Shown in pieces: positions 3,516 to 61,364 of a stretch of DNA of 64,000 nt. Numbering within the stretch: position 1 is the stretch's first letter; each line of letters begins with the position of its first letter. The notes below the pieces were generated by a model, which was not told the DNA's origin, did no database searches, and was given only the letters and a program-made list of their open reading frames with translations. Source of the DNA: Alphaproteobacteria bacterium. GTDB lineage: Bacteria; Pseudomonadota; Alphaproteobacteria; UBA11073. The stretch is from positions 20,635-84,634 of the forward strand of contig JABDAM010000004.1 of assembly GCA_013289145.1 (NCBI GenBank), given 5' to 3'. The translations under genes and the position numbers were made by a program.

Positions 3516-6131
3516 ATGCCCCATAACCTCGTCATCGTCGAAAGCCCGTCAAAGGCTAAGACCATCGGTAAATATCTCGGCCCCGGCTATGAGGTTTTGG
3601 CGAGCTTTGGCCATGTGCGCGACCTGCCGCCCAAGGACGGCTCGGTGCGGCCGGACGAGGATTTCGCGATGGAATGGGAACTGGGCGACCGCGCGGCCAA
3701 ACCGGTGCGGGATATTCTGACCGCGGCCAAGGCCGCCGACACCATCTTTCTCGCCACCGACCCGGACCGGGAGGGTGAGGCCATTTCCTGGCACCTGGAA
3801 CAGATCCTGCGGGACAAGAAACTGGACAAGGGCCGCACCATCGGCCGCGTGACCTTTAATGAGATCACCAAGGGCGCGATCCAGGCCGCCTTCAAACACC
3901 CGCGCGAGGTAAATGCAGAGCTGGTTGAAGCCTACCTCGCCCGCCGGGCGCTGGATTACCTGGTGGGCTTTACACTCTCACCTATATTATGGCGCAAACT
4001 GCCAGGCGCGCGTTCGGCGGGGCGCGTGCAGTCGGTTGCGCTGCGCCTGATCTGTGAACGCGAAACCGAAATCGAAAAATTCCGCGCGGAGGAATACTGG
4101 ACCATCGAAGCCACCATCGCCGCGCCGGACGGTTCAACCTTCCCCGCCCGCCTGACGCATTGGGAAGGGCAGAAGTTAGAAAAATTCTCCATCACCCGCG
4201 AAGCCGAGGCGCGCGCGATTGCGGACAAACTGGTAGGGCAAAGTTTCACCGTCGCGGCGCAAACGAAAAAAGAAGTGCGGCGTAATCCTGGGCCGCCATT
4301 TATTACTTCGTCGATGCAGATGGAATCCGCACGTAAACTCGGCTTCGGCGCGCAGGCGACGATGCGATTGGCGCAACAATTATACGAAGGCGTCGACATC
4401 GGCGGCGAAACCGTCGGCCTGATTACCTATATGCGTACTGACGGCGTTCAATTGTCTGAGGAAGCGATTGGGTCTTGCCGTTCGATGATTGACCAAATGT
4501 ACGGGCAAGATTATCTGCCCGCCGCGCCGCGTGTTTATGTCAGCAAAGCCAAAAACGCGCAGGAAGCACATGAGGCTATCCGCCCCACCGATTTGCATCG
4601 TCATCCGGATAAAGTGAAAAAATATTTAAACGATGACCAGCTCGCTTTATACGATATGATCTGGAAACGCACATTGGCCGCGCAGATGGAAAGCGCGGTA
4701 TTGGATCAGACGACGATTGATTTATCGGGGCCGAATAATTCCACGCTGCGCGCGAGCGGCAGCGTGATTAAATTCGACGGCTTTTTAAAAGTTTATACCG
4801 AGGGCAAAGACGACGTTACAGACGGCGCCAGCAAATCCGAAGACGATGAAAACCGCCGCTTGCCCAGCCTGAAAGACGGCGCGGTCTTGCCCGCGAAAGA
4901 AATTTCGCCCGAACAGCATTTCACCCAGCCGCCGCCGCGTTATAGCGAAGCGACGCTGGTAAAGGCGCTGGAAGAACTCGGCATCGGGCGGCCATCCACA
5001 TACGCAAGCATTATTAATGTCCTGCAGGAACGCAATTACGTCGCGCTCGACCGCAAGCGGTTTATTCCCAGCGACCGCGGACGAATCGTTACGTCGTTCC
5101 TGGAAAACTTTTTCCACAAATATGTGGAATATGATTTCACCGCGGGACTGGAAGAACAACTGGACGACGTTTCCGGCGGGCGTTTGAATTGGAAAAAACT
5201 GTTGCGCGATTTTTGGGGTGATTTTTCCGCCGCGATCGACAGCGCGAAACCGCTGACGATCACGCAGGTGATTGATACGCTGGACGCCGAACTCGAAGCG
5301 CATTTGTTCCCGCCGCGCGCGGACGGCACGGACCCGCGTAAATGTCCGCTGGATGGCGGACGGCTGGGTTTGAAACTCGGACGGTTCGGCGCGTTTATCG
5401 GCTGTTCGAATTATCCCGAATGCGAATACAAACGCCCGATGAGCGTCGGCGAAGGCGGCGCGACAGGTGAAGACGGCGAAAACAACGGCCCGCGCGTGCT
5501 GGGCACGCATCCCGACACGGGTGATAATATCGAAGTCAAAATCGGGCCTTACGGCCCCTACGTTGAAATGCCGGGGCCGGAAGGCAAGCCGAAACGCGCG
5601 TCCTTGCCGCGCGGCGCGAAGATTGCGGATCTGACGCTGGAAAAGGCGGTTGATTTGTTGTTGCTGCCGAAAGACTTGGGCATCTTTCCGGAAACGGGTG
5701 AGAAAATTTTGGCCAATGTCGGGCGGTTCGGCCCCTATGTTCAGGCAGGTAAAATTTTCGCCTCCGTGCCAAAAGGCGAGGATATTCTCGAGGTTGGACT
5801 CAACCGCGCGATTGCGCTATTGATGGATAAGAAAGAAAAGATGAAGCCGCTGCGCATCCTGGGCGAACACCCCGAGGGCGGCGAAGTCGGCATCTACGCC
5901 GGGCGGTTCGGACCCACCGTGCGGCACAACAACAGGGAGGCGAATTTGACACGCGTAGTTGTAATCGACGATATCACGCTGGAAGAAGCAATCAAATTGC
6001 TGGCCGAAAAAGGCCGCGCGCGGTTGGGCACGAAGACTAAGCCCGCGAAAAAGGCGGCGGCAAAGAAAGCGGCCCCTAAAACAGTGGCAAAAGTTGCCGG
6101 TAAAAAACCCGCGCGCGCGAAAGCGAAGTAA
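3516..6131 (+). CDS. topA: DNA topoisomerase I
   Basis: 871 aa. N-terminal TOPRIM VIVESPSKAKTIGKYLG, DPDREGEAISWH, YMRTDG active-site region, C-terminal Zn-ribbon CPLDGG...CSNYPEC and a Lys/Ala-rich tail. Confidence 0.95.
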   Translation: MPHNLVIVESPSKAKTIGKYLGPGYEVLASFGHVRDLPPKDGSVRPDEDFAMEWELGDRAAKPVRDILTAAKAADTIFLATDPDREGEAISWHLEQILRDKKLDKGRTIGRVTFNEITKGAIQAAFKHPREVNAELVEAYLARRALDYLVGFTLSPILWRKLPGARSAGRVQSVALRLICERETEIEKFRAEEYWTIEATIAAPDGSTFPARLTHWEGQKLEKFSITREAEARAIADKLVGQSFTVAAQTKKEVRRNPGPPFITSSMQMESARKLGFGAQATMRLAQQLYEGVDIGGETVGLITYMRTDGVQLSEEAIGSCRSMIDQMYGQDYLPAAPRVYVSKAKNAQEAHEAIRPTDLHRHPDKVKKYLNDDQLALYDMIWKRTLAAQMESAVLDQTTIDLSGPNNSTLRASGSVIKFDGFLKVYTEGKDDVTDGASKSEDDENRRLPSLKDGAVLPAKEISPEQHFTQPPPRYSEATLVKALEELGIGRPSTYASIINVLQERNYVALDRKRFIPSDRGRIVTSFLENFFHKYVEYDFTAGLEEQLDDVSGGRLNWKKLLRDFWGDFSAAIDSAKPLTITQVIDTLDAELEAHLFPPRADGTDPRKCPLDGGRLGLKLGRFGAFIGCSNYPECEYKRPMSVGEGGATGEDGENNGPRVLGTHPDTGDNIEVKIGPYGPYVEMPGPEGKPKRASLPRGAKIADLTLEKAVDLLLLPKDLGIFPETGEKILANVGRFGPYVQAGKIFASVPKGEDILEVGLNRAIALLMDKKEKMKPLRILGEHPEGGEVGIYAGRFGPTVRHNNREANLTRVVVIDDITLEEAIKLLAEKGRARLGTKTKPAKKAAAKKAAPKTVAKVAGKKPARAKAK

Positions 6132-6137
6132 CCGTTA

Positions 6138-6848
6138 TTACGGTTTTGGCTGACCGCCGCCCGGGGTGCCGGGTTTATGATCGCCTTGATTGCCGCCACC
6201 AAAGCCCAAACGGTCTTTTAACCATTGCCCGAGACGTTTTTTGGGCTGGATATCTGGTTCCGGCGCACGGGGATATAAGGCAGGCACAATTTCATTTTTC
6301 CAGATCGTATCGAAATGCTGCTGCTGCATTGCGGGCTCCAAGACGGAAAACGGGATGGCGTCGCGGTTTTCCAAATATTCTTCCGATACCAGCCGCGCGC
6401 CGCTCGCGCATAAATCCCGCAAAACACGGTACCATTCTTTTTTCAGGATTTCGTTTTTCTGCTGACTTTGCTCATTTGTTTCTGTCCATACAATTAATCG
6501 GTTCGTATGTTCGTAAATCTTTGGTCCGCCAAATTCATCAAAGAAAATTTGGGCTGATTTACAATCTAATAACCGCTTGAATAAATAATCTTTAAACTCC
6601 CATTGATGATCCAGTGCACAAATTTGCGCAGAATAATTTGTGTCATAATTGTTAAAACCACCGGAAATCTGGGCATCAAATTTCCTTACCCGCCACAGCA
6701 AAACCGCAAAATCTTTCAACGCCGCATATTGCCCACGGTTGGGATCGGACTGATCATCCGGCGCGGCATCCGGGTTTTCAATGTCCGCGATCAGGCTGCG
6801 CATTTGCGGTGCTTCGGCAATCTCGTCTATGCTTTCTTGCATGTTCAT
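6138..6848 (-). CDS. hypothetical protein, tandem paralog A
   Basis: ORF 6138-6902. The MNMQESIDE start at 6848 is preferred because AAGGA lies 7 nt upstream. Shares FKD(Y/F)LF...AQIFF(D/N)..G.P(K/E)IY and a conserved C-terminal block with the neighbouring ORF. Confidence 0.55.
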   Translation of the reverse strand: MNMQESIDEIAEAPQMRSLIADIENPDAAPDDQSDPNRGQYAALKDFAVLLWRVRKFDAQISGGFNNYDTNYSAQICALDHQWEFKDYLFKRLLDCKSAQIFFDEFGGPKIYEHTNRLIVWTETNEQSQQKNEILKKEWYRVLRDLCASGARLVSEEYLENRDAIPFSVLEPAMQQQHFDTIWKNEIVPALYPRAPEPDIQPKKRLGQWLKDRLGFGGGNQGDHKPGTPGGGQPKP

Positions 6849-46174: not shown

Positions 46175-46415
46175 TAGCTTTTTTTAATTTTTTCCTTGTT
46201 TTCTTAATATGATCCTCTTCTTCAAGGCTTATTGGTGGGTGAGTTTGTTTCTCGCTTAGGGTTGCGATTGCAATCTCCAGCATATGCGCCGTTGTGTGAA
46301 CCCCATTATCGCGCATATCGTCGATTAAATAACGCAAACACTTTTCATAAAGTGTCAAATGCTGGAGACTTGGCGAGTCTACCATTTTTATTCTGCCATT
46401 TTTTAACAAGATCAT
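46161..46415 (-). CDS. small hypothetical protein co-transcribed with luxI
   Basis: 84-aa ORF. Its ATG overlaps the luxI-type gene stop (ATGA at 46412-46415). Confidence 0.45.
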   Translation of the reverse strand: MILLKNGRIKMVDSPSLQHLTLYEKCLRYLIDDMRDNGVHTTAHMLEIAIATLSEKQTHPPISLEEEDHIKKTRKKLKKAINSL

Positions 46416-47056
46416 GCTGCCCTCTTTAGTGCTTCAACATTTAAATTTTCCACGAACTCTCTTAAATTTAGAACAAGGTCAGATTCTACTTTGCTTTTCT
46501 TCCGAACGTTATCCAACACTTCCTGGTTAACGGTATAGATAAATGCAATCGAGTCTTCATTCGCTGTTTGTCCTACTAAGCCTAATGGCGTCGGATCCCA
46601 ACCAAAACGTAAGAGTAATTTTTCTATCCTAATATCTGAAAGAGATACGTAGTTCTGCATTCTTACAAAAACCCCAAATTCAAGCATTGCAGCCACCAGC
46701 TCCCCCGTAATATTATTTGGCTGTTTTTTATCTGGATCGGCAGCAAAACGGCTAGTCTCATAGCACCGTTCAGACCTTATTGGCTCATCTATTAGAAAGT
46801 GGCGAAAAGAATTCGCTAATAAATATGGTTTTATTGTTTGGATCAGCCTTGTACAGGCGGAAACTTCATTATCCTCTGGATCAATTTTCACCAGGTAGAT
46901 CGCATCATCCGTATCATATTCATCAAATTCCATGCGACTGATGCCATCACCCCTAACCCAGCCTAGACGCTCCTTGAAGACGCGAAACCTTAAATTGTGC
47001 ATTGAGGCCAAATAATGCCTATCACTCGAATTTTTGGGAGAAATTAGTCGATACAT
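46412..47056 (-). CDS. luxI: acyl-homoserine-lactone synthase (LuxI family)
   Basis: LRFRVFKERLGWV, EFDEYD, CTRL and YETSRFA reproduce the conserved LuxI-family residues. Confidence 0.85.
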   Translation of the reverse strand: MYRLISPKNSSDRHYLASMHNLRFRVFKERLGWVRGDGISRMEFDEYDTDDAIYLVKIDPEDNEVSACTRLIQTIKPYLLANSFRHFLIDEPIRSERCYETSRFAADPDKKQPNNITGELVAAMLEFGVFVRMQNYVSLSDIRIEKLLLRFGWDPTPLGLVGQTANEDSIAFIYTVNQEVLDNVRKKSKVESDLVLNLREFVENLNVEALKRAA

Positions 47057-47144: not shown

Positions 47145-47909
47145 ATGATGCAGTCGAATCAATCATTAAATTTGATTGGGGAATTTGTCGAAAAAGTGCA
47201 ACGCATCCAAAATCTTGAAGGGTTGGATATAGCCTTCAACGAAATAATGCGCAAATTCTGCTTTGATAAATATGCATATCAGCTAGTTAAAAATGAACAG
47301 TATAAAAAGCCAGATCCTTTAATTCTTGCCTCCTATCCTGAGGAGTGGGTTCGTTATTATCTTGGGCAGGCCTATCACAAGCTCGATCCCGTCATTATCG
47401 AAGGCCCAAAGAAGAGACTTCCTTTTACATGGAGTTCAATGTGGGAGGGTATAGAGCTTAATAAAAAGCAAAAAGCCTTCTTTAATGAAGCTGAAGAATT
47501 CTCTGTGGCAAACGGCCTAGGCTTCCCTATTCCGGGGCCTAATGGTTCATTTGCAATGGTTACTATGGCCGCAGCTAATGATGATGCTATCGGAGTGCAA
47601 AGAATTTTTGAAGAAAATCAACAAACACTTCATATACTTTCATTATATTATCATCAAGCCGTTTGCGAACTTTTGGCTAAGAAGGAAAATTTCCTCCTGA
47701 ACGTAGCCCATGAAGATTTATCACCGCGAGAATTAGAAATTCTTAAATGGTGCGCAGCACACAAAAGTAATTGGGAAGTAGGTATGATTCTGAAGATTTC
47801 TGAAAACACCGTTCGACATCATCTCAAAAACATCCTCCTTAAGTTTAAAGTTTCCTCAAAGCATGAGGCAGTTGTAAGAGCGATAATGCTAGGCTTAATT
47901 AAACCTTAG
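47145..47909 (+). CDS. luxR: LuxR-family autoinducer-binding transcriptional regulator
   Basis: N-terminal autoinducer-binding-like domain (YPEEWVRYY...DPV). C-terminal HTH LSPRELEILKWCAAHKSNWEVGMILKISENTVRHHLKNI. Confidence 0.85.
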   Translation: MMQSNQSLNLIGEFVEKVQRIQNLEGLDIAFNEIMRKFCFDKYAYQLVKNEQYKKPDPLILASYPEEWVRYYLGQAYHKLDPVIIEGPKKRLPFTWSSMWEGIELNKKQKAFFNEAEEFSVANGLGFPIPGPNGSFAMVTMAAANDDAIGVQRIFEENQQTLHILSLYYHQAVCELLAKKENFLLNVAHEDLSPRELEILKWCAAHKSNWEVGMILKISENTVRHHLKNILLKFKVSSKHEAVVRAIMLGLIKP

Positions 47910-48221: not shown

Positions 48222-48297
48222 GTCCCCTTCGTCTAGAGGCCTAGGACACCTCCCTTTCACGGAGGCGACACGGGTTCGAATCCCGTAGGGGACGCCA
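48222..48297 (+). tRNA. tRNA-Glu (anticodon UUC)
   Basis: GTCCCCTTCGTCTAGAGGCCTAGGACACCTCCCTTTCACGGAGG...GGTTCGAATCCCGTAGGGGACGCCA is close to canonical bacterial tRNA-Glu. Anticodon loop CTTTCAC. Confidence 0.9.
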
Positions 48298-48410: not shown

Positions 48411-48461
48411 GGGGGCATGGACGGGGGCACGCAAACGGACTGAAAGCAGGATGCCCCCATG
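48411..48461 (+). promoter_or_regulatory. hairpin abutting the integrase SD/start codon
   Basis: GGGGGCAT (48411-48418) pairs with ATGCCCCC (48451-48458). AGGA lies at 48448-48451 and the ATG at 48459. Confidence 0.4.
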
Positions 48462-49667
48462 CCCTTAACCGACGTTATTTGCCGCAACGCCAAGCCCAGA
48501 GCCAAAGCCTATAAATTATCAGACGGGAAAGGCCTGTATTTGGAAGTTATGCCCCACGGCAGCAGACTATGGCGCATGAAATACCGGTATGCTGGCAAGG
48601 AAAAGCGCCTGGCGCTTGGCATTTACGATGAGGTATCGTTAAAAGAAGCGCGCGAGAAATGCGATGCGGCGCGGAAGCAATTATCTGATGGCATTGATCC
48701 CTCATTTGCCAAGCAGGAGCAAAAAAGGGCCATTCTGCTCAATGCTGAAAATACTTTTGAAGCCGTGGCACGCGAATGGCATCAGCACAATCTTGAAAAA
48801 TGGAGCGAGAACCACGCCAACACCGTTATGCGACGGCTGGAGGCTGATATTTTTCCAAAGATTGGTAAGCTGCCAATTAAAGATATCACTGCTTCCATCC
48901 TGCTGCCCTCTATCAGAGCCATTGAGAAGCGGTCGGCCTTTGAAATGGCACGGCGGTCGCTCCAGTATTGCACTCAGATTTTCAGTTACGCCAATATAGT
49001 CAGCGACCACAAAACCAACCCTGCCAGGGATTTAAGCGAAGGCAAGGCATTGAAGCCTTTCAAACGTGGCCATTATGCCGCCATGGAGGCCAAAGATTTA
49101 CCTGATTTCTTGATCAAGCTGAGTCACAACGAAGGCCGCCTGTTCCCGCAAACGCGGATGGCGATTGAATTAATAATGCTGACCTTTGTCAGAACAAGCG
49201 AATTAATTGAGGCAAAATGGAAGGAATTCGATTTCAAAGAATGCATCTGGATTGTTCCGGCAGAGCGCATGAAAATGCGTAAACCGCATATTATTCCCTT
49301 GTCAAAACAAGTCTTATCTATTTTACACCGCTTGAAAGAATACAGCGAACACAGGGAATATATATTTCCCAGCCAACGTGATCCTCGTAGTCACATGAGC
49401 AACAACACCATTCTGGTCGCGTTGGATCGCATGGGTTACAGAGGCCAGCATACCGGACACGGCTTCCGCGCGCTGGCGATGTCCACGATTAAAGAAAAGC
49501 TGGGCTACCGCCATGAAGTGATTGACCGCCAACTTGCCCATGCCCATAAAAGCCAGATTGATGCCGCCTATGACCGCGCTAAATTCTTGGATGAACGCAA
49601 AAAGATGATGCAGGACTGGGCGGATTATTTGGATAAGATTGCGACGGGCGATAAGGCGGCTGCGTAG
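48459..49667 (+). CDS. int: P4-type tyrosine integrase
   Basis: MPLTDVICRNAKPRAKAYKLSDGKGLYL N-terminus. HGFRALAMS...RQLAH...YDRAKFL catalytic region. Paralogous to 30302-31501. Confidence 0.9.
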   Translation: MPLTDVICRNAKPRAKAYKLSDGKGLYLEVMPHGSRLWRMKYRYAGKEKRLALGIYDEVSLKEAREKCDAARKQLSDGIDPSFAKQEQKRAILLNAENTFEAVAREWHQHNLEKWSENHANTVMRRLEADIFPKIGKLPIKDITASILLPSIRAIEKRSAFEMARRSLQYCTQIFSYANIVSDHKTNPARDLSEGKALKPFKRGHYAAMEAKDLPDFLIKLSHNEGRLFPQTRMAIELIMLTFVRTSELIEAKWKEFDFKECIWIVPAERMKMRKPHIIPLSKQVLSILHRLKEYSEHREYIFPSQRDPRSHMSNNTILVALDRMGYRGQHTGHGFRALAMSTIKEKLGYRHEVIDRQLAHAHKSQIDAAYDRAKFLDERKKMMQDWADYLDKIATGDKAAA

Positions 49668-50789: not shown

Positions 50790-51272
50790 ATGACCAAACG
50801 TAGGCGGACTTATAATCTGGGCCTCATAAAGGCAACATTGCCATATTCGGTGAATGAAATCACCGAATTGCTGGGCGTGCATAAAAACACAGTGAGTCAA
50901 TGGTTTGAAGACGGACTGCGCGTGAATCAAGACAAACGCCCGTGGATTGTTAGGGGCGATGAATTAAAATGCTTTTTGGGTGCGCGGCAAAATAGCAGAA
51001 AGAAAAAATGCCGTCTGACAGAATTTTATTGCCTCAAATGTCATGATCGCCGTGAGGCGTATTTGAACATAGCGGACATCATTTTTGAAAGCCCCACCAA
51101 ATTACGTCTCAAGGTTATTTGTGCCGTATGCAGCACACGGATGAATAAGGTGCAAAACACCAATAATCTGGAGAAAATTCAGGCGGCCTTCAATATCCAG
51201 AAGCTGGAGGGGGAACACATAATAGAATGCATCGATCCCAGCCTTAACAGTGACAACGGAGAAACAAAATGA
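50790..51272 (+). CDS. HTH plus Cys4 zinc-ribbon DNA-binding protein
   Basis: YSVNEITELLGVHKNTVSQWFEDGL is HTH-like. It is followed by CLKCH...CAVC. The stop overlaps the next gene start (ATGA). Confidence 0.5.
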   Translation: MTKRRRTYNLGLIKATLPYSVNEITELLGVHKNTVSQWFEDGLRVNQDKRPWIVRGDELKCFLGARQNSRKKKCRLTEFYCLKCHDRREAYLNIADIIFESPTKLRLKVICAVCSTRMNKVQNTNNLEKIQAAFNIQKLEGEHIIECIDPSLNSDNGETK

Positions 51273-52375
51273 GCAGACCCAGAACCAATGACAAGAATGA
51301 CCGGATCAAACGCGATCATCTGATCTGGCTGAAAGAAGCCAAACAGCGTGCGGCGACCACGGTTGATCGTACCAGACATGCGATTGATCGGTTTGAGGCA
51401 TACATAAAATACAAGGATTTCGGCACCTTCAATAAAGAACAGGCGATGGGATTTAAGAAATTCTTGTTGGCGCAGAATGCCAAGCGTTCTGGTGAACCTA
51501 TGAGCATCTCCACGATTCATCATATTCTACAAGCCATTCAAGAATTTTTACGGTGGCTGCATGAGCAGCCAGGGCACAATCGCCGCATTAGGCTGACGGA
51601 TATTGATTACTTGAACCTGACCACTGGGCAGGAACGTCAGGCACATGTAACCCCTCCCAAAGCCTATGCCACTGTTGAACAGTACCGCACTGTGCTGGCA
51701 GCCATGCCCAATACCACCGAGGTTGAGTGCCGAGACAGGGCATTGCTAGCACTTATGCTGCTTACCTGTATGCGTGATGCGGCGGTCATATCCCTAAAAT
51801 TAAAGCATATATCCCTTGAACATCGCCGCGTATTTCAAGACCCGCGCCAGGTCAAAACAAAATTCAGCAAAACAATCACCACCGTCTTTTATCCTGTGGG
51901 GGAAGATATTGTGGATATTATTCGTGAATGGGTAGATTTTTTAACCGTGGAAAAGAAATTTAGCCCCAATGATCCATTATTCCCTAAAACAGTCATGAAA
52001 ATTGATGCTGGCGGAGATTTTTCAGTTCAGAATCTCAGTCGGGAGCATTGGGCCAACGCCACACCTATCCGCAAGTTATTTAAGGCAGCATTCGCTCGGG
52101 TAGGACTGCCATATTTCAATCCGCATACAATGCGTGACACATTAACGCACCTTGCGTATCAATCAAAACTCAATGCGGCGCAATTCAAGGCTTGGAGTCT
52201 AAATATGGGCCACGACAAACCGTTAACGACATTCAATAGTTATGGGAATCTCTCTCTTGATGAGGTCTCAGAAATTATGAGCGATCTGCGTCAGGCTCAG
52301 CAAAAACCCGCTGTGCCCGATGATCTTGCCGTTAAAATTACTGAGATTCACGCCATGCTGAAAGCACGGAGTTAA
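51269..52375 (+). CDS. tyrosine recombinase (phage integrase family), second recombinase of Island 2
   Basis: Catalytic-signature candidates: LTCMRDAAV (Arg), HTMRDTLTH (HxxR) and GHDKPLTTFNSYG (His...Tyr). Confidence 0.8.
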   Translation: MSRPRTNDKNDRIKRDHLIWLKEAKQRAATTVDRTRHAIDRFEAYIKYKDFGTFNKEQAMGFKKFLLAQNAKRSGEPMSISTIHHILQAIQEFLRWLHEQPGHNRRIRLTDIDYLNLTTGQERQAHVTPPKAYATVEQYRTVLAAMPNTTEVECRDRALLALMLLTCMRDAAVISLKLKHISLEHRRVFQDPRQVKTKFSKTITTVFYPVGEDIVDIIREWVDFLTVEKKFSPNDPLFPKTVMKIDAGGDFSVQNLSREHWANATPIRKLFKAAFARVGLPYFNPHTMRDTLTHLAYQSKLNAAQFKAWSLNMGHDKPLTTFNSYGNLSLDEVSEIMSDLRQAQQKPAVPDDLAVKITEIHAMLKARS

Positions 52376-53985
52376 GTCGGCCTCATCATCAGATAGGCAT
52401 GTTGTTCACAATAAATTCGTGCTAATTGAGGCTGTGTTAAATCTTTTAATTTATCAAAATTAGGTGCGTTGGCCATAAATTCTAAAACCTGTTCTCTGGA
52501 AACATTTTGATAAGATTCATAGAAAAAATCAAACCACCCAATGGGATCTTTTATTTGATGTGATGTCTGTTTATGGACACCAAAAAATGTATCCGGATGT
52601 TTCTGATATGCTGCAAACTCTATATCGGTTATAGGGCAACGGGCATGAATACGAGTACCGTCATGAAGGCGATAGGTTCCATGAACCATTTTCTCATGCT
52701 GCATTACAATTGCATCTTCAAGCACTCCTGGGACATTTACGCCATCTGAATTTGGAATTAAATAAGTTCCACCAATCAATAATCTAGGCCTCCCAATATC
52801 ATTAAATTCTAAATCTGGAATCTCACCATCAAACGTTGATGGAACCTGCTGTTCTTGCATACTCTTTATTAAAGTGTGCATGGCAATATGTTTGTCACGC
52901 GCATCCACGGCCTCTATTAAAGAGGGGAAGCTGGCGCCTAACTTGAACTCTGGAATTTTGAAGCCCTCAGCGAGCAAGGCAACCCGAAAATCCTGGCTAT
53001 TTGGATGGTGGTGATATGGCATGTTGGTCACAAATACATAAGCCTCTGGAGCCGGATATTTTCCAAATTTTAGTGTAGTTTCACTTCTTCTTATTTGTGC
53101 CATGGCTTCTTTTAAACATCCAATTTCATCATCGCCCTTGGATACATCTGGGACATTAATATCAATGAATACCACTCTTTTATATGCTGCTCTTTTCTGT
53201 AGAGCATTTTTAAGTTTTGTTTCAACTTTGATATTTTTGTCCGGATTGGAATTATTTACTGCGTCGCCTTTGGATTTTGCTTCAACCGAGAATTGCTGGC
53301 CCGATTTTCGATGTGTTGCGTTGAATTCACAATGCTTGGTTGTATGGTCTGTGTCATCTTCCAGTTCAAGGTCGAAGCCAGCGCGAATAAATGATGCCGC
53401 AACAAATAATTCATAATATGCGCCATAAAAATGGTCAGAATTTTTTAATTTATCAATAAATCTTTTTTGTAATTCAACATTGTGGGCCAGTAAAAACAAA
53501 TGATACGCGAGGTGGAGGTATGCTGATATCGCTCCCGTCATCTGCCCAGAATATATCCCCTTTTCATTCTTTGGTGCAGATTGCTGATACATGCAGAGAT
53601 CATGATACCATCTTAAAATTGGATGCCGTTCTTGAGGGGATTTTTTGATTTCAGTGTCACCCCACTCTGGCCCGAGGACAGTTTTTATATAATCAAATAA
53701 AAAATCATGAAATGTTTTCCATTTGTCGCGAGAAAAAATCGTATTCCCGACGGTCACTATTCTGTGGCCATTAGATTCGAACGAAACCGTGGGTCGCCCT
53801 AAACCTTGCTGCAAGTTGCGTTGTGCGTTTTGTGCTTCGTGTTGTTTTATGGCGTGCAAAACCTCTGGTGAAAGGACTTCGCCGGGATAGGGGCTGCGCA
53901 TAATTTTATTCATGCAGCATTTTTTATATTTTTGACCGCTATTGCAAGGGCAACGGTCATTACGACCAATTTTCTTTTTAGGCAT
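52372..53985 (-). CDS. SEC-C motif protein with PD-(D/E)xK-like nuclease core
   Basis: N-terminal RNDRCPCNSGQKYKKCC (SEC-C metal-binding motif). Central YYELFVAA...FDLELEDD...FSVEAKSKG fits the E...D...ExK restriction-endonuclease-like pattern. Confidence 0.65.
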   Translation of the reverse strand: MPKKKIGRNDRCPCNSGQKYKKCCMNKIMRSPYPGEVLSPEVLHAIKQHEAQNAQRNLQQGLGRPTVSFESNGHRIVTVGNTIFSRDKWKTFHDFLFDYIKTVLGPEWGDTEIKKSPQERHPILRWYHDLCMYQQSAPKNEKGIYSGQMTGAISAYLHLAYHLFLLAHNVELQKRFIDKLKNSDHFYGAYYELFVAASFIRAGFDLELEDDTDHTTKHCEFNATHRKSGQQFSVEAKSKGDAVNNSNPDKNIKVETKLKNALQKRAAYKRVVFIDINVPDVSKGDDEIGCLKEAMAQIRRSETTLKFGKYPAPEAYVFVTNMPYHHHPNSQDFRVALLAEGFKIPEFKLGASFPSLIEAVDARDKHIAMHTLIKSMQEQQVPSTFDGEIPDLEFNDIGRPRLLIGGTYLIPNSDGVNVPGVLEDAIVMQHEKMVHGTYRLHDGTRIHARCPITDIEFAAYQKHPDTFFGVHKQTSHQIKDPIGWFDFFYESYQNVSREQVLEFMANAPNFDKLKDLTQPQLARIYCEQHAYLMMRPT

Positions 53986-54077
53986 GATTACACTCTTCGG
54001 TAGCCATCAAACGATTTATAGCAGTATATATCCATATTTTGTAGACGCGAACAAAATCCGGTGTCAGAATATGAGAC

Positions 54078-55214
54078 ATGGGTATGCCAGAACATCCAAA
54101 TTTTGCACCTGCTGAACTAGAAGAAGCAGCGCCGTTAATCTATACAAATTGGACAAACTTTAATGCTGATAAAGAGCTATCGCGAACAATAGAGTTTGGA
54201 GTTTTTGCTGATGCCAGAATAATTGGCCAATCTAAATTTGGCCCTTATGACTTTCTGAATACCCTTGCATCTGCTGTGGGTAACGGTTCACTTACGCAGG
54301 CAATCGTTGTGCGATCCGTTTGTCATTGGCCGGAATATGGCTTTAAGCCAATGTATAAAACTCAGGATAGTCATTATCATGGCGGAGATCATCCTGATGA
54401 ATTAGCTGCCCTGATCTCGCTAATCCTGGGAATTAGAGCACAAGCTGGCTCCATAACAAGGGAGTTTATGCTGCATGGCGACCCATACGGTTCACCTACA
54501 ACAATAGGAAGCAAACCCATCCCCATCCTCCCACCATTATATATCAGTCCGCGAATACCAAGACTCCGGTCAGAATATAATCTTGATGAACTTGAGCCAA
54601 TTACGATACTGCCACGAGTAAATGCTGAGACAGCAAGTGTGATCGTGAAGGTCGCCAGAATGTACCAGCAGGCTGTTTGGCTTGTTGATGCACAGCCATC
54701 AATGTCCTGGCTTTTACTTGTATCGGCTATTGAAACTGCTGCAAATTACTGGGCATTGCAAAAGCACATCATCAGTGATGATTACACACTACCCGAAGAA
54801 TTAAATGAAATTATTGCAGAGCATTCGTGCTCTTCATCAATTGTTGAGCCGCTTTCAAAATATATGGAGAAATACACCAAAGCCACCACAAAATTTGTTA
54901 AATTTATTCAGGAATTTCTGCCCGATCCCCCTGAGAGCAGGCCGGAAGCAGCATACTGCATTGAATTTACAAAAAATGGATTAAAAAAAGGCTTGGAAAA
55001 GATATATGATTATCGGTCTCGCGCTCTTCATGACGGGATATCATTTCCGTACCCTATGTGTAACGCACCCAGTCATTATCACGAAGAGATGCCCATGGGG
55101 GCAACACGGGCGCAGAATGGAATTTGGTCAAAGGAAGATATGCCGATGTTATTACATATTTTTGAACACATCGTCAGAGGGTCAATTTTGAATTGGTTGC
55201 AATCACTATGCTAA
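54078..55214 (+). CDS. hypothetical protein with C-terminal HEPN-like R-x4-H motif (ApeA-like layout)
   Basis: 378 aa. Helix SWLLLVSAIETAANYW, then IYDYRSRALHDG (R-S-R-A-L-H). A large N-terminal domain of unknown function. Confidence 0.5.
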   Translation: MGMPEHPNFAPAELEEAAPLIYTNWTNFNADKELSRTIEFGVFADARIIGQSKFGPYDFLNTLASAVGNGSLTQAIVVRSVCHWPEYGFKPMYKTQDSHYHGGDHPDELAALISLILGIRAQAGSITREFMLHGDPYGSPTTIGSKPIPILPPLYISPRIPRLRSEYNLDELEPITILPRVNAETASVIVKVARMYQQAVWLVDAQPSMSWLLLVSAIETAANYWALQKHIISDDYTLPEELNEIIAEHSCSSSIVEPLSKYMEKYTKATTKFVKFIQEFLPDPPESRPEAAYCIEFTKNGLKKGLEKIYDYRSRALHDGISFPYPMCNAPSHYHEEMPMGATRAQNGIWSKEDMPMLLHIFEHIVRGSILNWLQSLC

Positions 55215-56071
55215 CTTTCAACGAAGGCAAAACATGTGATGCCATCATGCGCCATCTTGAGGCGCGTGAAAACGCCCAACGCGGAGTTTTATGATTTCCG
55301 GAAAATGAACATCACAAAGCACCCGTTGAAATAGTTTGCGAAATCGGCAATCAGCTATTTGCATTTGAACATACCTGCATTGAACCATTTGAAGGTCATG
55401 TGCAGATGAACAATCAGGCTGACACTCATTATAAGCCTATATTGGATGCATTAAATGGAAACTTGCCGCCAGGAGCGTTCCAGTTGCATATTCCGGCCAA
55501 AGCATTTCAGGGAATGGAGAAACATGCCATCAAAAAGATTCATGACGTAATAATCGGTTGGATTAAACAAACTGCCCCCACGTTGCCGATCAATCCTTAT
55601 GCTCACTATAAGGGTGGCGGCACGGGGCCAACTACACTTGCTGATGTGCCTTTCGATGTGTCGCTATACCGATTCAAGGCAGCACAACTGCAAGGGCATC
55701 TCAATATAATACACTTGGTTGCAGAAGATGGTGGAAAGGCACGAACTGCACGCATCAGAACGGCCTGTGACAAAAAGTTTCCAAAATTGGCTCATTGGAA
55801 ACGTGATGAGGGCGCGAGGACGGTTCTTATTCTGGAAGATAATGATATCCAACTGACAAATCATCAAATCGTCGCAGATGTATTTGCTCCTCTAGCATTA
55901 GCCAGAGACGATAGGCCGGATGAAACCTATGTTGTTATCACATGCACAGACCCATGGTGGATATGGCCAATTTTGATTGATGGTAGGACTTGTTATGAGA
56001 TGTTTGAAAACGGGGAGTCCCCGGGCTGCGAAGTTAATATGAAAGAACTTGTGCAGCTGACAAAGCGTTAA
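55208..56071 (+). pseudogene. hypothetical gene interrupted by an in-frame TGA (55292-55294)
   Basis: The ATG at 55208 overlaps the upstream stop (ATGCTAA). The frame is open for 28 codons, then TGA, then stays open in the same frame through the GTG at 55400 used by the ORF track, ending at 56071. Confidence 0.5.
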
Positions 56072-56392: not shown

Positions 56393-57034
56393 ATGAAGAA
56401 AATTTACTCACTGGCATTTGCAGCAGCTCTGCTGGCTGTCGCCGCTGCCACAGCGCATGCCGACGACTGGACAACAAACTTGCACCCGTATGTAGGCGCT
56501 GATTATCAATTCACGCACCTGAAATACAATAATGATTATGGCGTGGGCAGTGGCTTGGCATTAGACGGCAACACAATTTTAGAACGTGGCCTGAATGGTG
56601 GAAACATCCACGTGGGCGTGCGCCCAGCGCAGTATTGGGGCGCAGAGTTGGGTTATTTTGACACGACCAATGAAAGTAAGAACATCGCCGCAGGAACGAC
56701 AGTTGGCCCCGGCACGGTGGCTTTGGTGCCGCTGACAGGCAAGGTGCAAATGCATGGCGCGACGCTGGATGCGATGGGCTACCTCCCGATAGTCACCAAC
56801 CGGGTTGATTTAATCGCCACCACCGGGCTTGCATGGGATCATCTCAAGGTTGGCTTTGGCGGCCTCGGCAGCGTCAGCAAAAGTGAGATTGATTGGCGGA
56901 TTGGTGGCGGCGCACAGGTGAACTTGTTGCCAAATTTGAATCTGCGCGGCTTGGTGCGTTATCAAACGGCGGATTTCAAAAACATCGCTGACAACGCTTG
57001 GGTTTACACCGCCGGGATGAATTATAGCTTCTAA
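56393..57034 (+). CDS. outer-membrane beta-barrel protein (OmpA-like/porin-fold)
   Basis: Signal peptide MKKIYSLAFAAALLAVAAATAHA. Alternating amphipathic strands. C-terminal GMNYSF with terminal Phe. Confidence 0.7.
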   Translation: MKKIYSLAFAAALLAVAAATAHADDWTTNLHPYVGADYQFTHLKYNNDYGVGSGLALDGNTILERGLNGGNIHVGVRPAQYWGAELGYFDTTNESKNIAAGTTVGPGTVALVPLTGKVQMHGATLDAMGYLPIVTNRVDLIATTGLAWDHLKVGFGGLGSVSKSEIDWRIGGGAQVNLLPNLNLRGLVRYQTADFKNIADNAWVYTAGMNYSF

Positions 57035-57099: not shown

Positions 57100-57486
57100 A
57101 TGCGTATCATCTCTTTTATCAGCCTCGTGGCACTCACTGGCTGCATTACTGCTTGTTCCAGTATTATTGAAGGACGCAGTCAGCAGATCGTCATTAATAC
57201 CAACCCGCCCGGCGCAAGCTGCCAGTTAGTCCGCAACGGCACAACCATCGCCACAGTTACAGACACTCCCAGCGGCGTGAATGTGGATAAAACCAAATAT
57301 GATATTGAGATAAAATGTAATAAGCCCGGCTATCAACAGGCTACCTACCTAAACCATTCCGGCGCGGCAGGTGCTACGTTTGGCAACATTATCCTTGGCG
57401 GCGGCATCGGTTGGGCAATCGACTCCGCTTCCGGCGCTGATAACAAATACGACAGTCCGGTGAATATCACGTTGGCGAAGAAATAA
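57100..57486 (+). CDS. lipoprotein with PEGA-like domain
   Basis: Lipobox LVALTGC. IVINTNPPGASCQLVRNG...KPGYQQ resembles a PEGA domain. Confidence 0.5.
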   Translation: MRIISFISLVALTGCITACSSIIEGRSQQIVINTNPPGASCQLVRNGTTIATVTDTPSGVNVDKTKYDIEIKCNKPGYQQATYLNHSGAAGATFGNIILGGGIGWAIDSASGADNKYDSPVNITLAKK

Positions 57487-58001: not shown

Positions 58002-59744
58002 ATGACTGCCGTACAGAGTGCCGCCAATGATCAACATCCTGCTGATCAGCAGATGCCTGAAACAATTATTCCATCTATTACATTCGAAACCATAACATTC
58101 TCAGACGGGACAACCATCCATCTCAATCCTAAAGATATTATTGTTTTTGTCGGCCCTAATAATGCTGGTAAAAGTGAGGCTTTGCGAGAACTTAGTCAGC
58201 ACCTATTTCCACAACGTACAGGCGTAGTCGTCAAATCAGTTAAATTGCGAAAGACAGGGAATGTAGAGCAATTGCGTGCATTTCTAAATTTGCACGCAAA
58301 GAAAAAAGACATTCAATATCAAGGCTATCGAATTAATGTTGATGATCGAACGCTAGATCGCGCGTGGACACATGATATCGGCCCTCTGCAAAACCTTTTT
58401 TGCCAGCAAATTTCTACTCAATCAAGAATCCAGGACAGCAACCACGCATCTGCTATTAATACTATTGAACATGCGCCATCCCATCCTATTCATATGCTAT
58501 TTGATGATGATAAGATCGAACAACGTATCAGTGATTATTTCCGACGGGCTTTTGGCAAAGATTTGATTGTATTCCGGGCGGGTGGAAACACATGGCCTCT
58601 TTTAGTGGGTGAACGATTAGTCGCTCAGCCTGGGGAACATATGTATTCCAAGTCTTATAATGAGCGCCAATTAGATGCGGCGGTTCAGCTTTCATTGCAG
58701 GGTGATGGAATGAGAAGTTTTGCCACTGTAATCCTGCACATGCTTGCCCCCGCAACGCCATCCATTCTCTTGCTCGATGAGCCAGAAGCATTTTTGCATC
58801 CACCGCAGGCGCGATTACTGGGTGAATTTATTGCCAATGAACGACCGCCTCAAGCCCAACTATTTATATCAACACATAGCCCCGATGTTCTACAAGGCTT
58901 ACTCAGTACTGCTTCGCAACATCTCCGTATTATTCGCATTCAACGTGACGGCGATGTTAATCGTGTGAAAGAATTGGATAAAGAAAAAACCAGAAGAATT
59001 GCTGCCGACCCCCTAATGAAATTTTCTTCCGTAATGTCTGGCGTATTTCATCAAAGGGTAATTATATGCGAATCTGATTCTGACTGTATGTTTTATAGCT
59101 CTATTCTTGATTTACCTGATGTGCGCGGGGAACGGCAGCCGGATGTTTTATTTATTCACGCAGGCGGCAAGCAGCGCATGGCTGCGCTTGCAGAATCTTT
59201 GTGTGCCCTTGGTGTAAACGTAGATGTGATTGCTGATATTGATATTTTGAATGATGAAACGATTCTTCAGAATCTGATAACGACGCTTGGCGGTAACTGG
59301 TCAGAAATTTTAGCTGAAGCCAGACCTCTTAGGTTGGCGATTGAGCAGAAGAAGCCCTGGCTAGACGCGGGTGAAGTAGTCAAAGAAATTCAGAAAATTC
59401 TCAGGGGTGTTTCTACTTCAGGTGAATTTCCTAAAAAATTGCGCAGTGACGTTGATGCCGTTTTTCGCAAAGCATCACCTTGGGAGGCAATAAAGGCCGC
59501 TGGCGCGGCGGCAATACCTCCAGGGCAAGCAACCCAGCAATATCAGCGTCTGCAAAATCTTTGTAAGGAATGCGGGCTTTGGATTGTGCCTGTTGGCGAA
59601 CTTGAGGGATTCTGTAAATCCGAAGGAGGGCACGGACCGCAATGGGTACAAAAGATTATAGAAAGCCGCGATTTAGCTGCCGATGGCGAACTTGCGGCTG
59701 CTCGGGATTTTATGAGTGAATTGTACAACAAAAGGCCATCATAA
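58002..59744 (+). CDS. OLD-family-like ABC ATPase with C-terminal TOPRIM/DUF4435-like domain
   Basis: Walker A GPNNAGKSE, signature-like LSLQGDGMRSF, Walker B ILLLDEPEAFLHP, H-loop STHSPDV. The C-terminal part has VIICESDSDCMFY and VIADIDIL (Glu plus DxD, TOPRIM-like). Confidence 0.65.
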   Translation: MTAVQSAANDQHPADQQMPETIIPSITFETITFSDGTTIHLNPKDIIVFVGPNNAGKSEALRELSQHLFPQRTGVVVKSVKLRKTGNVEQLRAFLNLHAKKKDIQYQGYRINVDDRTLDRAWTHDIGPLQNLFCQQISTQSRIQDSNHASAINTIEHAPSHPIHMLFDDDKIEQRISDYFRRAFGKDLIVFRAGGNTWPLLVGERLVAQPGEHMYSKSYNERQLDAAVQLSLQGDGMRSFATVILHMLAPATPSILLLDEPEAFLHPPQARLLGEFIANERPPQAQLFISTHSPDVLQGLLSTASQHLRIIRIQRDGDVNRVKELDKEKTRRIAADPLMKFSSVMSGVFHQRVIICESDSDCMFYSSILDLPDVRGERQPDVLFIHAGGKQRMAALAESLCALGVNVDVIADIDILNDETILQNLITTLGGNWSEILAEARPLRLAIEQKKPWLDAGEVVKEIQKILRGVSTSGEFPKKLRSDVDAVFRKASPWEAIKAAGAAAIPPGQATQQYQRLQNLCKECGLWIVPVGELEGFCKSEGGHGPQWVQKIIESRDLAADGELAAARDFMSELYNKRPS

Positions 59745-60029
59745 AACGCATCCTAGAGTTTTACGGCGGATTGCCGGGAGTCTGACATGCGCCGACTTTA
59801 GCACGAATCCGGTGCAACTATTAGAAAAACTGGACTTTTGGGCTATGGAATCTCTAATTTAGGCTATCTGATCACTACCTTTCCGCGGAACGACATATTT
59901 TCAATGGATTAAGCAGGAAACCCCCGGTGACGGTGGGGTTTGTAACCCTCATTATGCGGGGCCAAATTCAATGCTTGCATTTGCCCACATTATCCCACAT
60001 GATACCACATAGGGGTGAGCGGGGTTTCT

Positions 60030-61112
60030 ATGGACTGGTTAGAGCACAGATTAAGCTGCCGTTTGGCGCTGCCCGCCGAGGCCAGTGAGCGGGTTTATGC
60101 CGCCATTGCCGAGATTGATGCGGTCAAGAATAGCTGGCGGCTAACCAACCGTCTGATGCCGCAGATGATTGAACGCCTGATGCAAAGCGTACTGGTGACC
60201 TCCACTGGCGCATCTAACCGGATTGAGGGCAATAAACTCACTGATGAAGAGGTGCAATCGCTTTATAAAAACATGCGCATCCGCAAATTGAAATCGCGCG
60301 ATGAGCAGGAGGTTGCAGGCTATCTGGAAATCTTGCAATCCGTTTTTGAAAATTACGCAAATATGCCTGTGCGGGAATCCACCATCCTGCAACTCCACCG
60401 CGACATGCTGAGCCACAGCGATAAAGACCAAGGACATCTGGGACAATATAAATTCGGCGCGAACCGCGTGGAAGCTAAAGACCCTGACGGTAACGTGATC
60501 GGCATAATTTTCGATCCTACGCCACCATACTTAACGCCATTGGAAATGCGCGAACTGTGTGAATGGTACGCATGGGCGGTGGCGGAAAAATTCAAACATC
60601 CGCTAATCCTGACCGCAAATTTCATCTTTGAATATCTGGCGATCCACCCGTTTCAGGACGGTAATGGACGAACCAGCCGCGTTTTGACAAATTTGATGTT
60701 GTTGCAGCACGGTTATGCTTTCACCACGGTGGCGTCGCACGAGAAAATTATTGAGGATGCCAAGGCAGATTATTACCTGGCGTTGAATCGCACGCAGCGG
60801 ACTTGGAAAACCGAGGCGGAGGATATTACGCCGTGGCTGTCGTTTATTTTTGAAGTCTTTCGCGGTCAGGCAGCCAAAGCCTTGCAGCTGTTGGAAGCGG
60901 ATCAAACCGAACTGCTGCTGTCGGAGAAACAACTGGCGCTATGGCAATGGGCGAACACGTTGCCAGACGGTCTGTTCAGCCCACGCATGGCGGTTGAAGC
61001 TACTGGGTTTCCCGTGCGCACGGTTGAGGCCATCATCAAGAAACTCAGCGACATGAATAAACTGGAACGCCTGGGCGAAGGCCGCGGCACACGGTATCGC
61101 TTGGTGCGATGA
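60030..61112 (+). CDS. fic: Fic family protein (class II, intramolecular inhibitory helix)
   Basis: Active site HPFQDGNGRTSR. N-terminal inhibitory motif SNRIEGN, i.e. (S/T)xxxE(G/N). C-terminal winged-helix-like tail. ORF track starts at GTG 60015. Confidence 0.85.
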   Translation: MDWLEHRLSCRLALPAEASERVYAAIAEIDAVKNSWRLTNRLMPQMIERLMQSVLVTSTGASNRIEGNKLTDEEVQSLYKNMRIRKLKSRDEQEVAGYLEILQSVFENYANMPVRESTILQLHRDMLSHSDKDQGHLGQYKFGANRVEAKDPDGNVIGIIFDPTPPYLTPLEMRELCEWYAWAVAEKFKHPLILTANFIFEYLAIHPFQDGNGRTSRVLTNLMLLQHGYAFTTVASHEKIIEDAKADYYLALNRTQRTWKTEAEDITPWLSFIFEVFRGQAAKALQLLEADQTELLLSEKQLALWQWANTLPDGLFSPRMAVEATGFPVRTVEAIIKKLSDMNKLERLGEGRGTRYRLVR

Positions 61113-61364
61113 ATAGTCATCACGATTGATCTTCGTAGGCTAAATAATACTCTATGATCTGAACCTTTAATAAGGAAATCTCTTATTAAAGGTTGTTTGT
61201 GCGATTTGAATTTCACTGCGAATATGCTATCCTCAATCTTGATTGGAAATCACAACACGGGTTCGAGTTCCTCTTGCACCACAAAAATGTGGGGGCATTA
61301 TCGGGGGCACGGCCAATTTTTTCCTATCGAAAATTCCTTGCAAATTAACCACTTAAAGCATCAA

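Follow-up and report, generated by a model that had tools for sequence, protein, structure and literature searches.

Two divergently transcribed genes, here called A and B, lie back to back in a 64,000-nucleotide stretch of alphaproteobacterial DNA (GTDB lineage UBA11073; GenBank assembly GCA_013289145.1, contig JABDAM010000004.1, positions 20,635 to 84,634), referred to below as the window, within an island linked to a tRNA-Glu gene. A preliminary description made from the sequence had read this pair as a single candidate defence module. The two open reading frames (ORFs) are present as described there, A with 537 residues on the minus strand and B with 378 residues on the plus strand, divergent and 92 bp apart. 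Public gene calls place the start of B at its third codon, giving a product of 376 residues.

52372 to 53985, minus strand: gene A, an ORF for a solitary 537-residue protein with an N-terminal SEC-C motif
53986 to 54077, no strand: divergent intergenic region between A and B, 92 bp
54078 to 55214, plus strand: gene B, an ORF for a solitary 378-residue protein

The best explanation, to which we assign a probability of about 0.5, is that A and B are independent single-gene cargo modules standing back to back in the island, B being an effector of the HEPN kind and A a SEC-C nuclease. Neither can be assigned to a named system, as the preliminary description had also concluded for their combination: SEC-C in A is the sole match to either protein in scans with Pfam, NCBIfam, PHROGs and PADLOC models, and members of both families are annotated merely as 'hypothetical' or 'SEC-C domain-containing'.

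A and B are not a two-gene system

We examined 80 genomic loci of the B family from more than 15 phyla, taking up to 10 kb on each side and scanning six-frame ORFs with hidden Markov models (HMMs) of both families. All 80 loci contain B and none has an A-family gene within 10 kb; a single weak match to the A HMM, at an Archangium locus (L054), is limited to the SEC-C motif. No other gene recurs beside B either. All-against-all clustering of ORFs within 4 kb gave a largest cluster of RelE/HigB-like proteins present in 4 of the 80 loci, and the 150 ORFs immediately flanking B yielded 95 Pfam families, none in more than three loci. SEC-C proteins were considered as regular neighbours of B and rejected, being found at only 2 of 81 loci with the window's own genome (L001) counted.

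The converse comparison gave the same picture. Outside the window, seven independent contexts of A were inspected (those of the homologues P0122 and P0153, four more, and one plasmid copy); none contains B and no partner gene of any kind was found among them. The closest homologues of A (P0122 at 52% identity, and P0153) and of B (P0002, P0003, and P0004; 47–52%) are solitary, each without the other, and copies of B in P2-like phages stand without A between tail genes. A and B are thus not a two-gene system, and the module proposed in the preliminary description does not hold. Because the B loci, the A contexts, and the nearest relatives of both lack the partner, the adjacency in the window is a one-off, best explained by independent defence or mobile-element cargo piling up in the same island. 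Homologues of the two genes are found with defence and mobile-element genes, in neighbourhoods of individual loci that differ for A and B, and not with each other.

That A and B nevertheless constitute one defence system, a nuclease pair divergently transcribed from a shared control region, is highly improbable and has already been largely refuted by comparative genomics. The idea draws on their adjacent and divergent placement 92 bp apart in a defence-type island, and on the Archangium locus (Archangium sp. metagenome-assembled genome JAEUJS010000369.1), where a protein with SEC-C at its N-terminus likewise precedes the B homologue. This neighbour is, however, a homologue of Rugutis, a single-gene abortive-infection (Abi)-like system of 359 residues from lactococcal plasmids (PMC11381338, PMC13064643), and has only the 27-residue SEC-C in common with A. 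It shares 28% identity over 325 residues with pUCCL633A Rugutis (E = 4e-36), and its gene (4483–5607) overlaps the start of the B-family gene (5607–6758) by 4 nt, an arrangement that may reflect chance placement within a defence island or a local operon. Besides the absence of the partner from the 80 B loci and seven A contexts, and the phage copies of B wedged alone amid tail genes, the sizes of the two families argue against a pair: A matches outnumber B matches roughly eightfold when clustered at 90% identity (1,673 clusters in the A homologue search versus 212 in the word-indexed B search). Within the 92-bp intergenic region, sigma-70-like and terminator-like sites do not exceed shuffle expectation.

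Protein B and the HEPN question

The B family is large and patchily distributed, in more than 15 phyla and one archaeon. An exhaustive profile search returned 1,805 clusters at 50% identity (E ≤ 1e-3), 866 of them with E ≤ 1e-30; the best 150 of these 1,805 relatives, which are those listed, are all close. AlphaFold2 (AF2), given an alignment of 46 sequences, predicts B as a single compact body with a predicted local distance difference test score (pLDDT) of 89.4 and a predicted TM score (pTM) of 0.89.

54135 to 54557, plus strand: N-terminal alpha/beta domain of B, residues 20–160, mainly strands with one helix in the AF2 model; putative sensor or regulatory domain
54624 to 55205, plus strand: C-terminal helical domain of B, residues 183–376, in the AF2 model a HEPN-like core of four helices interrupted by a helical insert
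54732 to 54734, plus strand: codon of E219 (SAIETAA), an acidic residue of putative helix 2, invariant in 329 sequences
55005 to 55031, plus strand: Y310-D-Y-R313-S-R-A-L-H318, the R-x4-H motif at the C-terminal end of putative helix 3

The predicted helices of the C-terminal domain span residues 183–202 and 207–228, an insert (240–248, 253–266, and 269–279), and residues 299–319 and 359–376, the last two being joined by a Pro/Cys-rich loop with a small hairpin. All peptides quoted in the preliminary description for A and B are present, among them LLLVSAIETAANYW and IYDYRSRALHDG in B. A bare R-x4-H is expected by chance and B holds two Rx4-6H strings; likewise, A holds four [DE]xK strings and a bare E-x-K is expected by chance. 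The quoted copies are meaningful because they are invariant or nearly so in their families, where they form the conserved cores (121 A and 329 B sequences), and not because such strings are rare. Across the 329 B sequences, W211, E219, Y310, and H318 are conserved at 100% and R313 and S314 at 99%, and the N-terminal domain contributes further charged residues, E39, D45, R79, H101 (in YHGG), E108, R120, and R128, each at 93–98%. Judged from sequence comparison, the motifs of both proteins are probably functionally important, and both genes are unassigned cargo of a defence-type island.

HEPN domains are defined by a core of four helices, the second and third being separated by an insert, and by a conserved R-x4-6-H where the third helix ends; a polar residue, mostly N, D, or H, follows the Arg, and helix 2 carries an acidic residue, typically as Ex3[KR] (PMC3710099). 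In B, the R-x4-6-H is RSRALH at residues 313–318 (R 99%, H 100%), and in the predicted secondary structure it falls at the end of helix 299–319, before the loop to the last helix, with the insert at residues 240–279. Motif position and secondary-structure topology thus point to a HEPN-like protein, for which we consider the odds even or slightly better.

Several observations weigh against this assignment. S314 is polar but atypical at a position where N, D, or H is usual, and E219 stands outside an Ex3[KR] context, the residue at +4 being Ala. No HEPN or other model of Pfam, NCBIfam, PHROGs, or PADLOC matches B or 46 members of its family, even at E ≤ 10, and searches of PDB sequences with the single sequence and with a profile were empty. 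Foldseek gave no significant neighbour, the best E values being 3.7 in PDB (to April 2026) and 1.8 in BFVD. The preliminary description had spoken of two predicted nucleases; the motifs and the topologies stand for both proteins, whereas the profile searches and the structure predictions followed by Foldseek recovered neither a HEPN fold in B nor a PD-(D/E)xK fold in A.

It is possible, though somewhat unlikely, that B is not a HEPN ribonuclease (RNase) at all and has a novel fold, in which Y-x2-R-S-x2-L-H and E219, together with E39, D45, R79, H101, E108, and R128 of the N-terminal domain, would form some other catalytic or ligand-binding centre. Such a fold would fit a confident AF2 model that has no neighbour in BFVD or in a PDB release holding many HEPN entries, the silence of HEPN profiles over 46 members, and the control-level hhalign score described below, as well as the many invariant charged residues outside the putative HEPN part and the prediction of both domains as one compact body. 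On the other hand, the third core helix ends in the R-x4-H, the second carries an invariant acidic residue, and an insert separates the two, which is what defines HEPN; HEPN families are notoriously undetectable from each other by sequence, and Foldseek retrieves short helical bundles poorly. The P2 Z-region location discussed below favours defence. Even with a non-HEPN fold, B would still be a stand-alone accessory gene of mobile elements with a function in defence, counter-defence, or another kind of conversion.

The preliminary description had compared the layout of B with that of ApeA, a single-protein abortive-infection tRNA anticodon nuclease with a HEPN_Apea domain (bioRxiv 10.64898/2026.01.26.701840). 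For reference, full-length Ec1- and Ec2-type ApeA genes were recovered from Escherichia coli genomes by means of the DNA in the supplement of that preprint, and a profile of 16 sequences was made from the collected homologues of these genes; HepT/DUF86-type HEPN genes, also wanted for a reference profile, were absent from the 2.2 Mb of fetched loci. Aligning B with the ApeA profile in hhalign gave a single alignment of 30 columns (E = 0.042, probability 1.2%; overall E ~0.01–0.04, probability ~1–4%), which lays KIYxYRSxALHdG of B over RIYxlRNKiaHtG of ApeA, that is, over its catalytic R521/H526 as defined by experiment, with 'IY' three residues upstream common to both. The domain-only score was 24.6 versus 21.6 for a reversed-sequence control and is not significant, which weighs against a HEPN assignment by homology.

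The two proteins are alike in several respects. Both are encoded by solitary genes without an antitoxin, and both have a noncatalytic N-terminal part followed by a C-terminal helical domain ending in an invariant R-x4-H, where RIYxxRNKixH of ApeA resembles KIYxYRSxALH of B at the control-level score just given. An invariant Glu lies in an earlier helix of each (LWIALE in ApeA, VSAIE in B), and both families are cargo in accessory slots of P2-like prophages. In contrast, ApeA has ~580–600 residues (about 590) with helical N-terminal and Mid domains, while B has 378 with an N-terminal alpha/beta domain of ~140 residues; S follows the Arg in B and N in ApeA, and the PADLOC and Pfam models of ApeA are silent on B. 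The ligand pocket and doughnut oligomers of ApeA cannot be inferred for B. B is therefore not a member of the ApeA family, there being no statistical homology and a different length and architecture, and the proposed ApeA-like layout reduces to a loose analogy. As a separate observation, an Ec2-type ApeA gene of E. coli JNQH497 (L181:2605–4356) lies in a P2-like prophage between the baseplate gene V and a virion-morphogenesis gene; RefSeq annotates the Ec2 type as 'hypothetical protein' and the Ec1 type as 'HEPN family anti-phage protein ApeA'.

Other single-protein HEPN effectors are DARNA/PD-T7-3, PD-T4-2, HepS, and AbiF/AbiD (bioRxiv 10.64898/2026.02.22.705581). These share with B the logic proposed here, one polypeptide uniting a sensor with an R-x4-H RNase kept inactive until infection, and none of their PADLOC models matches it. 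DARNA is unlike B in having its HEPN domain at the N-terminus and a Pds5-like domain of 456 residues at the C-terminus; identity of B with DARNA/PD-T7-3 was ruled out on this difference in architecture and the lack of a PADLOC match.

A tblastn search of phage genomes (E ≤ 1e-3) found full-length homologues with 32.5% identity and all hallmark motifs retained in eight Peduovirus records: Yersinia phages vB_YpM_50 and vB_YpM_22 (two records each), VB-YPM-18, vB_YpM_476A, and vB_YpM_476B, and E. coli phage vB_EcoM-720R8. In these eight records and in five E. coli prophages, the B homologue lies between the tail-fibre assembly gene G and the tail sheath gene FI, the P2 Z-region that is the place of the Z/fun exclusion gene (PMC3091744, PMC8594841, PMC13586616). 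In the three copies listed below it is the sole cargo there. The relation to Z/fun is positional, with no evidence of homology, and the search returned no record of phage P2 itself. The prophage homologue WP_223660635.1, annotated 'hypothetical protein', occurs in 5 of 5,426 complete E. coli genomes, and a literature search found the accessions of the phage and prophage homologues nowhere mentioned. Since the family fills a slot of P2-like phages known for phage exclusion, it makes a reasonable new candidate for an anti-phage gene.

L183:5965–7086: B copy in phage vB_YpM_50
L184:5965–7086: B copy in phage vB_EcoM-720R8
L187:2552–3622: B copy in a prophage of E. coli 19KM1831

Elsewhere, B homologues are found on seven plasmids and 10 IMG/VR contigs. 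Among the nearest relatives, P0003 (49% identity) follows a hipBA pair in a neighbourhood that also holds YjhX/GNAT toxin–antitoxin genes and an integrase fragment, P0004 (47%) has an aryl-polyene cluster on one side and a histidine kinase on the other, and P0002 (52%) is surrounded by small unrelated ORFs only. Other neighbours include ResIII, Uma2, nSTAND3, PIN/Phd, PLD-SNF2 (with matches to DISARM/BREX-like helicases), a methylase, a BsuBI/PstI endonuclease, and IstB of IS21. Some neighbourhoods of B are plainly housekeeping.

Taking B as a HEPN-type protein, the most likely scheme is a self-contained, normally inactive abortive-infection effector. Self-inhibition is suggested because a solitary gene without an antitoxin-like partner carries a putative toxic RNase site, and has precedents in ApeA, through a ligand pocket, and in DARNA, through sensing of single-stranded DNA. 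Since self-inhibition is implied, as in these two proteins, we propose the N-terminal alpha/beta domain as the sensor. It would recognize an infection cue and then license a metal-independent RNase site made of R313, S314, and H318 where helix 3 ends, together with E219 in helix 2, which dimerization would probably complete. By analogy with ApeA and DARNA, RNA (tRNA or mRNA) would be cleaved as the outcome, and the infected cell would be arrested.

Protein A, a SEC-C motif joined to a putative nuclease core

The A family comprises at least 1,673 clusters at 90% identity. At the N-terminus of A, CPCNSGQKYKKCC is a genuine SEC-C motif, as first described (PF02810, 33 bits where the gathering score is 20.4, E = 5.5e-8), and also matches the SEC-C peptides of SecA and YchJ in a PDB sequence search. 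SEC-C was found in 44 of 46 family members; the ligands C12, C14, and C23 are kept by 93% of members, and either H or C stands at position 24. The AF2 model (pLDDT 85.3, pTM 0.83) runs from the SEC-C knuckle through a long helix, a three-stranded sheet, and a helical region to a central alpha/beta domain, which is followed by further helices, a small beta-barrel, and a C-terminal helical domain.

53908 to 53964, minus strand: SEC-C zinc-binding motif of A, residues 8–26, RNDRCPCNSGQKYKKCCMN, PF02810 above its gathering score
53023 to 53439, minus strand: central alpha/beta domain of A, residues 183–321 in the AF2 model, putative PD-(D/E)xK-like nuclease core
52633 to 52767, minus strand: small beta-barrel of A (SH3-like or biotinyl-like), residues 407–451, from AF2 strands

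The central domain is predicted as alpha(183–201)-beta(204–208)-beta(221–225)-beta(231–238)-alpha(254–263)-beta(269–275)-alpha-beta, and A contains the strings YYELFVAA, DLELEDD, and FSVEAKSKG. Nine residues, E192, E209, E220, S233, E235, K237, R270, N277, and N321, are invariant over 121 sequences (100%). E192 lies within the first helix, E220 (after H218) opens the second strand, and E235-A-K237 is on the third, so that model and alignment together fit what is expected of PD-(D/E)xK enzymes, an alpha-beta-beta-beta-alpha-beta core with conserved acidic residues and ExK on beta3. On this motif position and secondary-structure topology, we consider it somewhat more probable than not that A carries a PD-(D/E)xK-type fold. 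The same topology, invariant acidic residues, and ExK on the third strand are found in PD-(D/E)xK nucleases such as XisH, the nuclease domain of Card1, Shedu, and HamA-type proteins. A differs from them in having Glu at the beta2 position, where Asp is usual, and in flanking domains (SEC-C, helical, and beta-barrel) unlike those of any named nuclease family.

Two results count against such a fold: no Pfam model of the PDDEXK clan matches A or 46 members of its family, even at E ≤ 10, and Foldseek against PDB returns weak hints only, XisH (2inb, E = 0.34, TM 0.39 on the target) and Card1 (6wxw, E = 0.49). Sequence searches of PDB, with single sequence and profile, gave SEC-C peptides only, and the PADLOC matches (E1-E2, E2, and PDC-S12) are confined to SEC-C residues. 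For the beta-barrel, the local Foldseek matches, an SH3 design and carboxylase barrels of the BCCP type, were all non-significant.

A and Rugutis resemble each other in layout. In each, SEC-C at the extreme N-terminus precedes a body that AF2 models confidently and that lacks a neighbour in PDB, and each is a single gene on mobile elements. Only residues 1–27 align (BLASTP 3e-7; hhalign over 27 columns), the bodies are unrelated, and Rugutis is without an ExK nuclease-like core comparable to that of A. With no homology beyond SEC-C to pUCCL633A Rugutis in BLASTP and hhalign, A is not a member of the Rugutis family.

The contexts of A outside the window are mixed. One copy is in a defence island, beside genes for an NB-ARC STAND protein, a Schlafen-like protein, and MazE/PIN, others lie in mobile elements with transposase, integrase, resolvase, or ParB genes, and the plasmid copy is between a tyrosine recombinase (that of Caballeronia plasmid p2) and a type I restriction–modification system. 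A conserved cassette of a small DNA-binding protein, a recombinase, and A was considered and refuted by comparing the window with Caballeronia plasmid p2, the two recombinases not being specifically related. Reduced forms of A were observed as well: copies without the C-terminal third on Agrobacterium and Rhizobium plasmids, the isolated central, nuclease-like domain in Sinorhizobium replicons, and degraded fragments in the temperate Burkholderia phage phi644-2 (L185:2331–3336). To judge from these forms, the central domain may be a mobile module. In a metagenome scan with the A alignment, matches to SEC-C alone predominated, and no A locus that could be used emerged.

A defence role for A is tentative, its odds falling slightly short of even, and a housekeeping nuclease is a live rival. 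We consider it unlikely that A is a housekeeping-type factor of DNA or RNA processing or repair, which SEC-C would tether to SecB, the ribosome, or another partner in the cell and whose presence in the island is incidental. Such a role would suit a conservation that is unusually high for a defence gene: the mean column identity of the family is 52%, and the 120 homologues that score best, drawn from a variety of genomes and metagenomes, are nearly all full length and share 42–52% identity with A. It would also suit the ordinary metabolic or translation neighbourhoods in three of the seven contexts, whose synteny is stable across samples; both P0122 and P0153 are single genes amid housekeeping genes. 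The restriction of PADLOC matches to SEC-C is likewise compatible with it. Against it stand the patchy occurrence of A, the plasmid copy by the type I restriction–modification system, the copies in mobile elements and beside STAND, Schlafen, and PIN genes, and the truncated or degraded copies in a temperate phage and on rhizobial plasmids. In the window, moreover, A is flanked by two integrase genes and a candidate defence gene.

As a SEC-C nuclease, A would most likely be a separate single-gene system laid out as lactococcal Rugutis, with an N-terminal zinc-binding SEC-C tag and a Mg-dependent nuclease core of PD-(D/E)xK type (E192/E220/E235-x-K237), and its beta-barrel and helical C-terminal region could bind the target or trigger. 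A bolder alternative for both genes is that B founds a structurally new single-gene phage-exclusion family with a non-HEPN fold and mechanism, an unrecognised and widespread immune module (over 1,800 clusters at 50% identity from bacteria and one archaeon or more) placed in the P2 Z/fun slot, with A independently a second new SEC-C-tagged system; we regard this combination as quite unlikely.

The island and the significance of the two families

The setting had been described as an integrase-bounded tRNA-Glu island with an OLD-like nuclease and a Fic protein. The tRNA, the integrases, and both of these proteins were found, whereas the far boundary is uncertain.

48222 to 48297, plus strand: tRNA-Glu(UUC), predicted by ARAGORN, likely integration site of the island
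48459 to 49667, plus strand: P4-type tyrosine integrase with Arm-DNA-bind_3, Phage_int_M, and Phage_integrase domains
51269 to 52375, plus strand: second tyrosine recombinase (Phage_integrase, E = 3.6e-15)
58002 to 59744, plus strand: OLD/GajA/AriA-like protein with ABC-ATPase and TOPRIM domains (AAA_21, 1.8e-20; OLD-like_TOPRIM, 1.1e-4)
60015 to 61112, plus strand: SoFic-like Fic protein (Fic, 1.6e-17; PADLOC SoFic, 1.5e-42)

The P4-type integrase gene begins 162 bp downstream of the tRNA, and the second recombinase gene is convergent with A, their 3' ends overlapping by 4 nt; an AlpA-like gene accompanies both. In PADLOC, the OLD-like protein matches Old (6.6e-22) and AriA (5e-22). Its gene is solitary, with no recognisable partner of the GajB or AriB kind, and 270 bp separate it from the Fic gene downstream. 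Just beyond the latter, positions 61255–61271 (ACACGGGTTCGAGTTCC) match the 3' part of the tRNA (48268–48284) at 15 of 17 nt. This repeat is the sole candidate attR, a weakly supported and maybe degenerate one, and would give an island of ~13 kb whose distal border is uncertain.

Base composition varies along the island. GC is 0.39–0.45 over A and B, compared with 0.52–0.54 in a block (~56–57.5 kb) that holds an ORF for an outer-membrane-protein-like beta-barrel (56393–57034) and one for a lipoprotein (57100–57486) and that separates A and B from the OLD-like and Fic genes. The island may be composite, or the latter two genes may be a separate islet. Directly upstream of the tRNA are genes for a luxI-type autoinducer synthase (46412–47056, minus strand) and a luxR-type regulator (47145–47909, plus strand), with an HTH_3 protein adjoining and a GC of 0.36–0.41; this stretch may be another acquired block. 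After B on the same strand, following a gap of 185 bp, is an ORF of 223 residues (55400–56071) that has no match in Pfam, NCBIfam, PHROGs, or PADLOC. Its only homologues are weak (~29% identity), on two conjugative plasmids (Sphingobium and Bradyrhizobium), and it is not kept beside homologues of B.

The negative lesson of the locus is that two nuclease-like genes standing side by side in a defence island are not evidence of a system. We would place B as a single-protein effector combining a sensor with a HEPN-type domain and A as a SEC-C-tagged single-gene nuclease. If the reading of A is true, A and Rugutis would point to N-terminal SEC-C as a recurring tag on unrelated single-gene defence proteins, raising the question of the tag's binding partner. 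The most useful outcome is the recasting of B as a widespread solitary family with an invariant HEPN-like site, a candidate new single-gene abortive-infection system. If B is confirmed, the single-protein abortive-infection effectors would gain a family of large size and very wide phylogenetic range that Pfam, PADLOC, and structure searches at present fail to see, and B would follow ApeA as a second HEPN-type or HEPN-mimicking effector carried in the accessory slots of P2. Its natural representative in P2 prophages of E. coli and Yersinia, WP_223660635.1, is directly testable.

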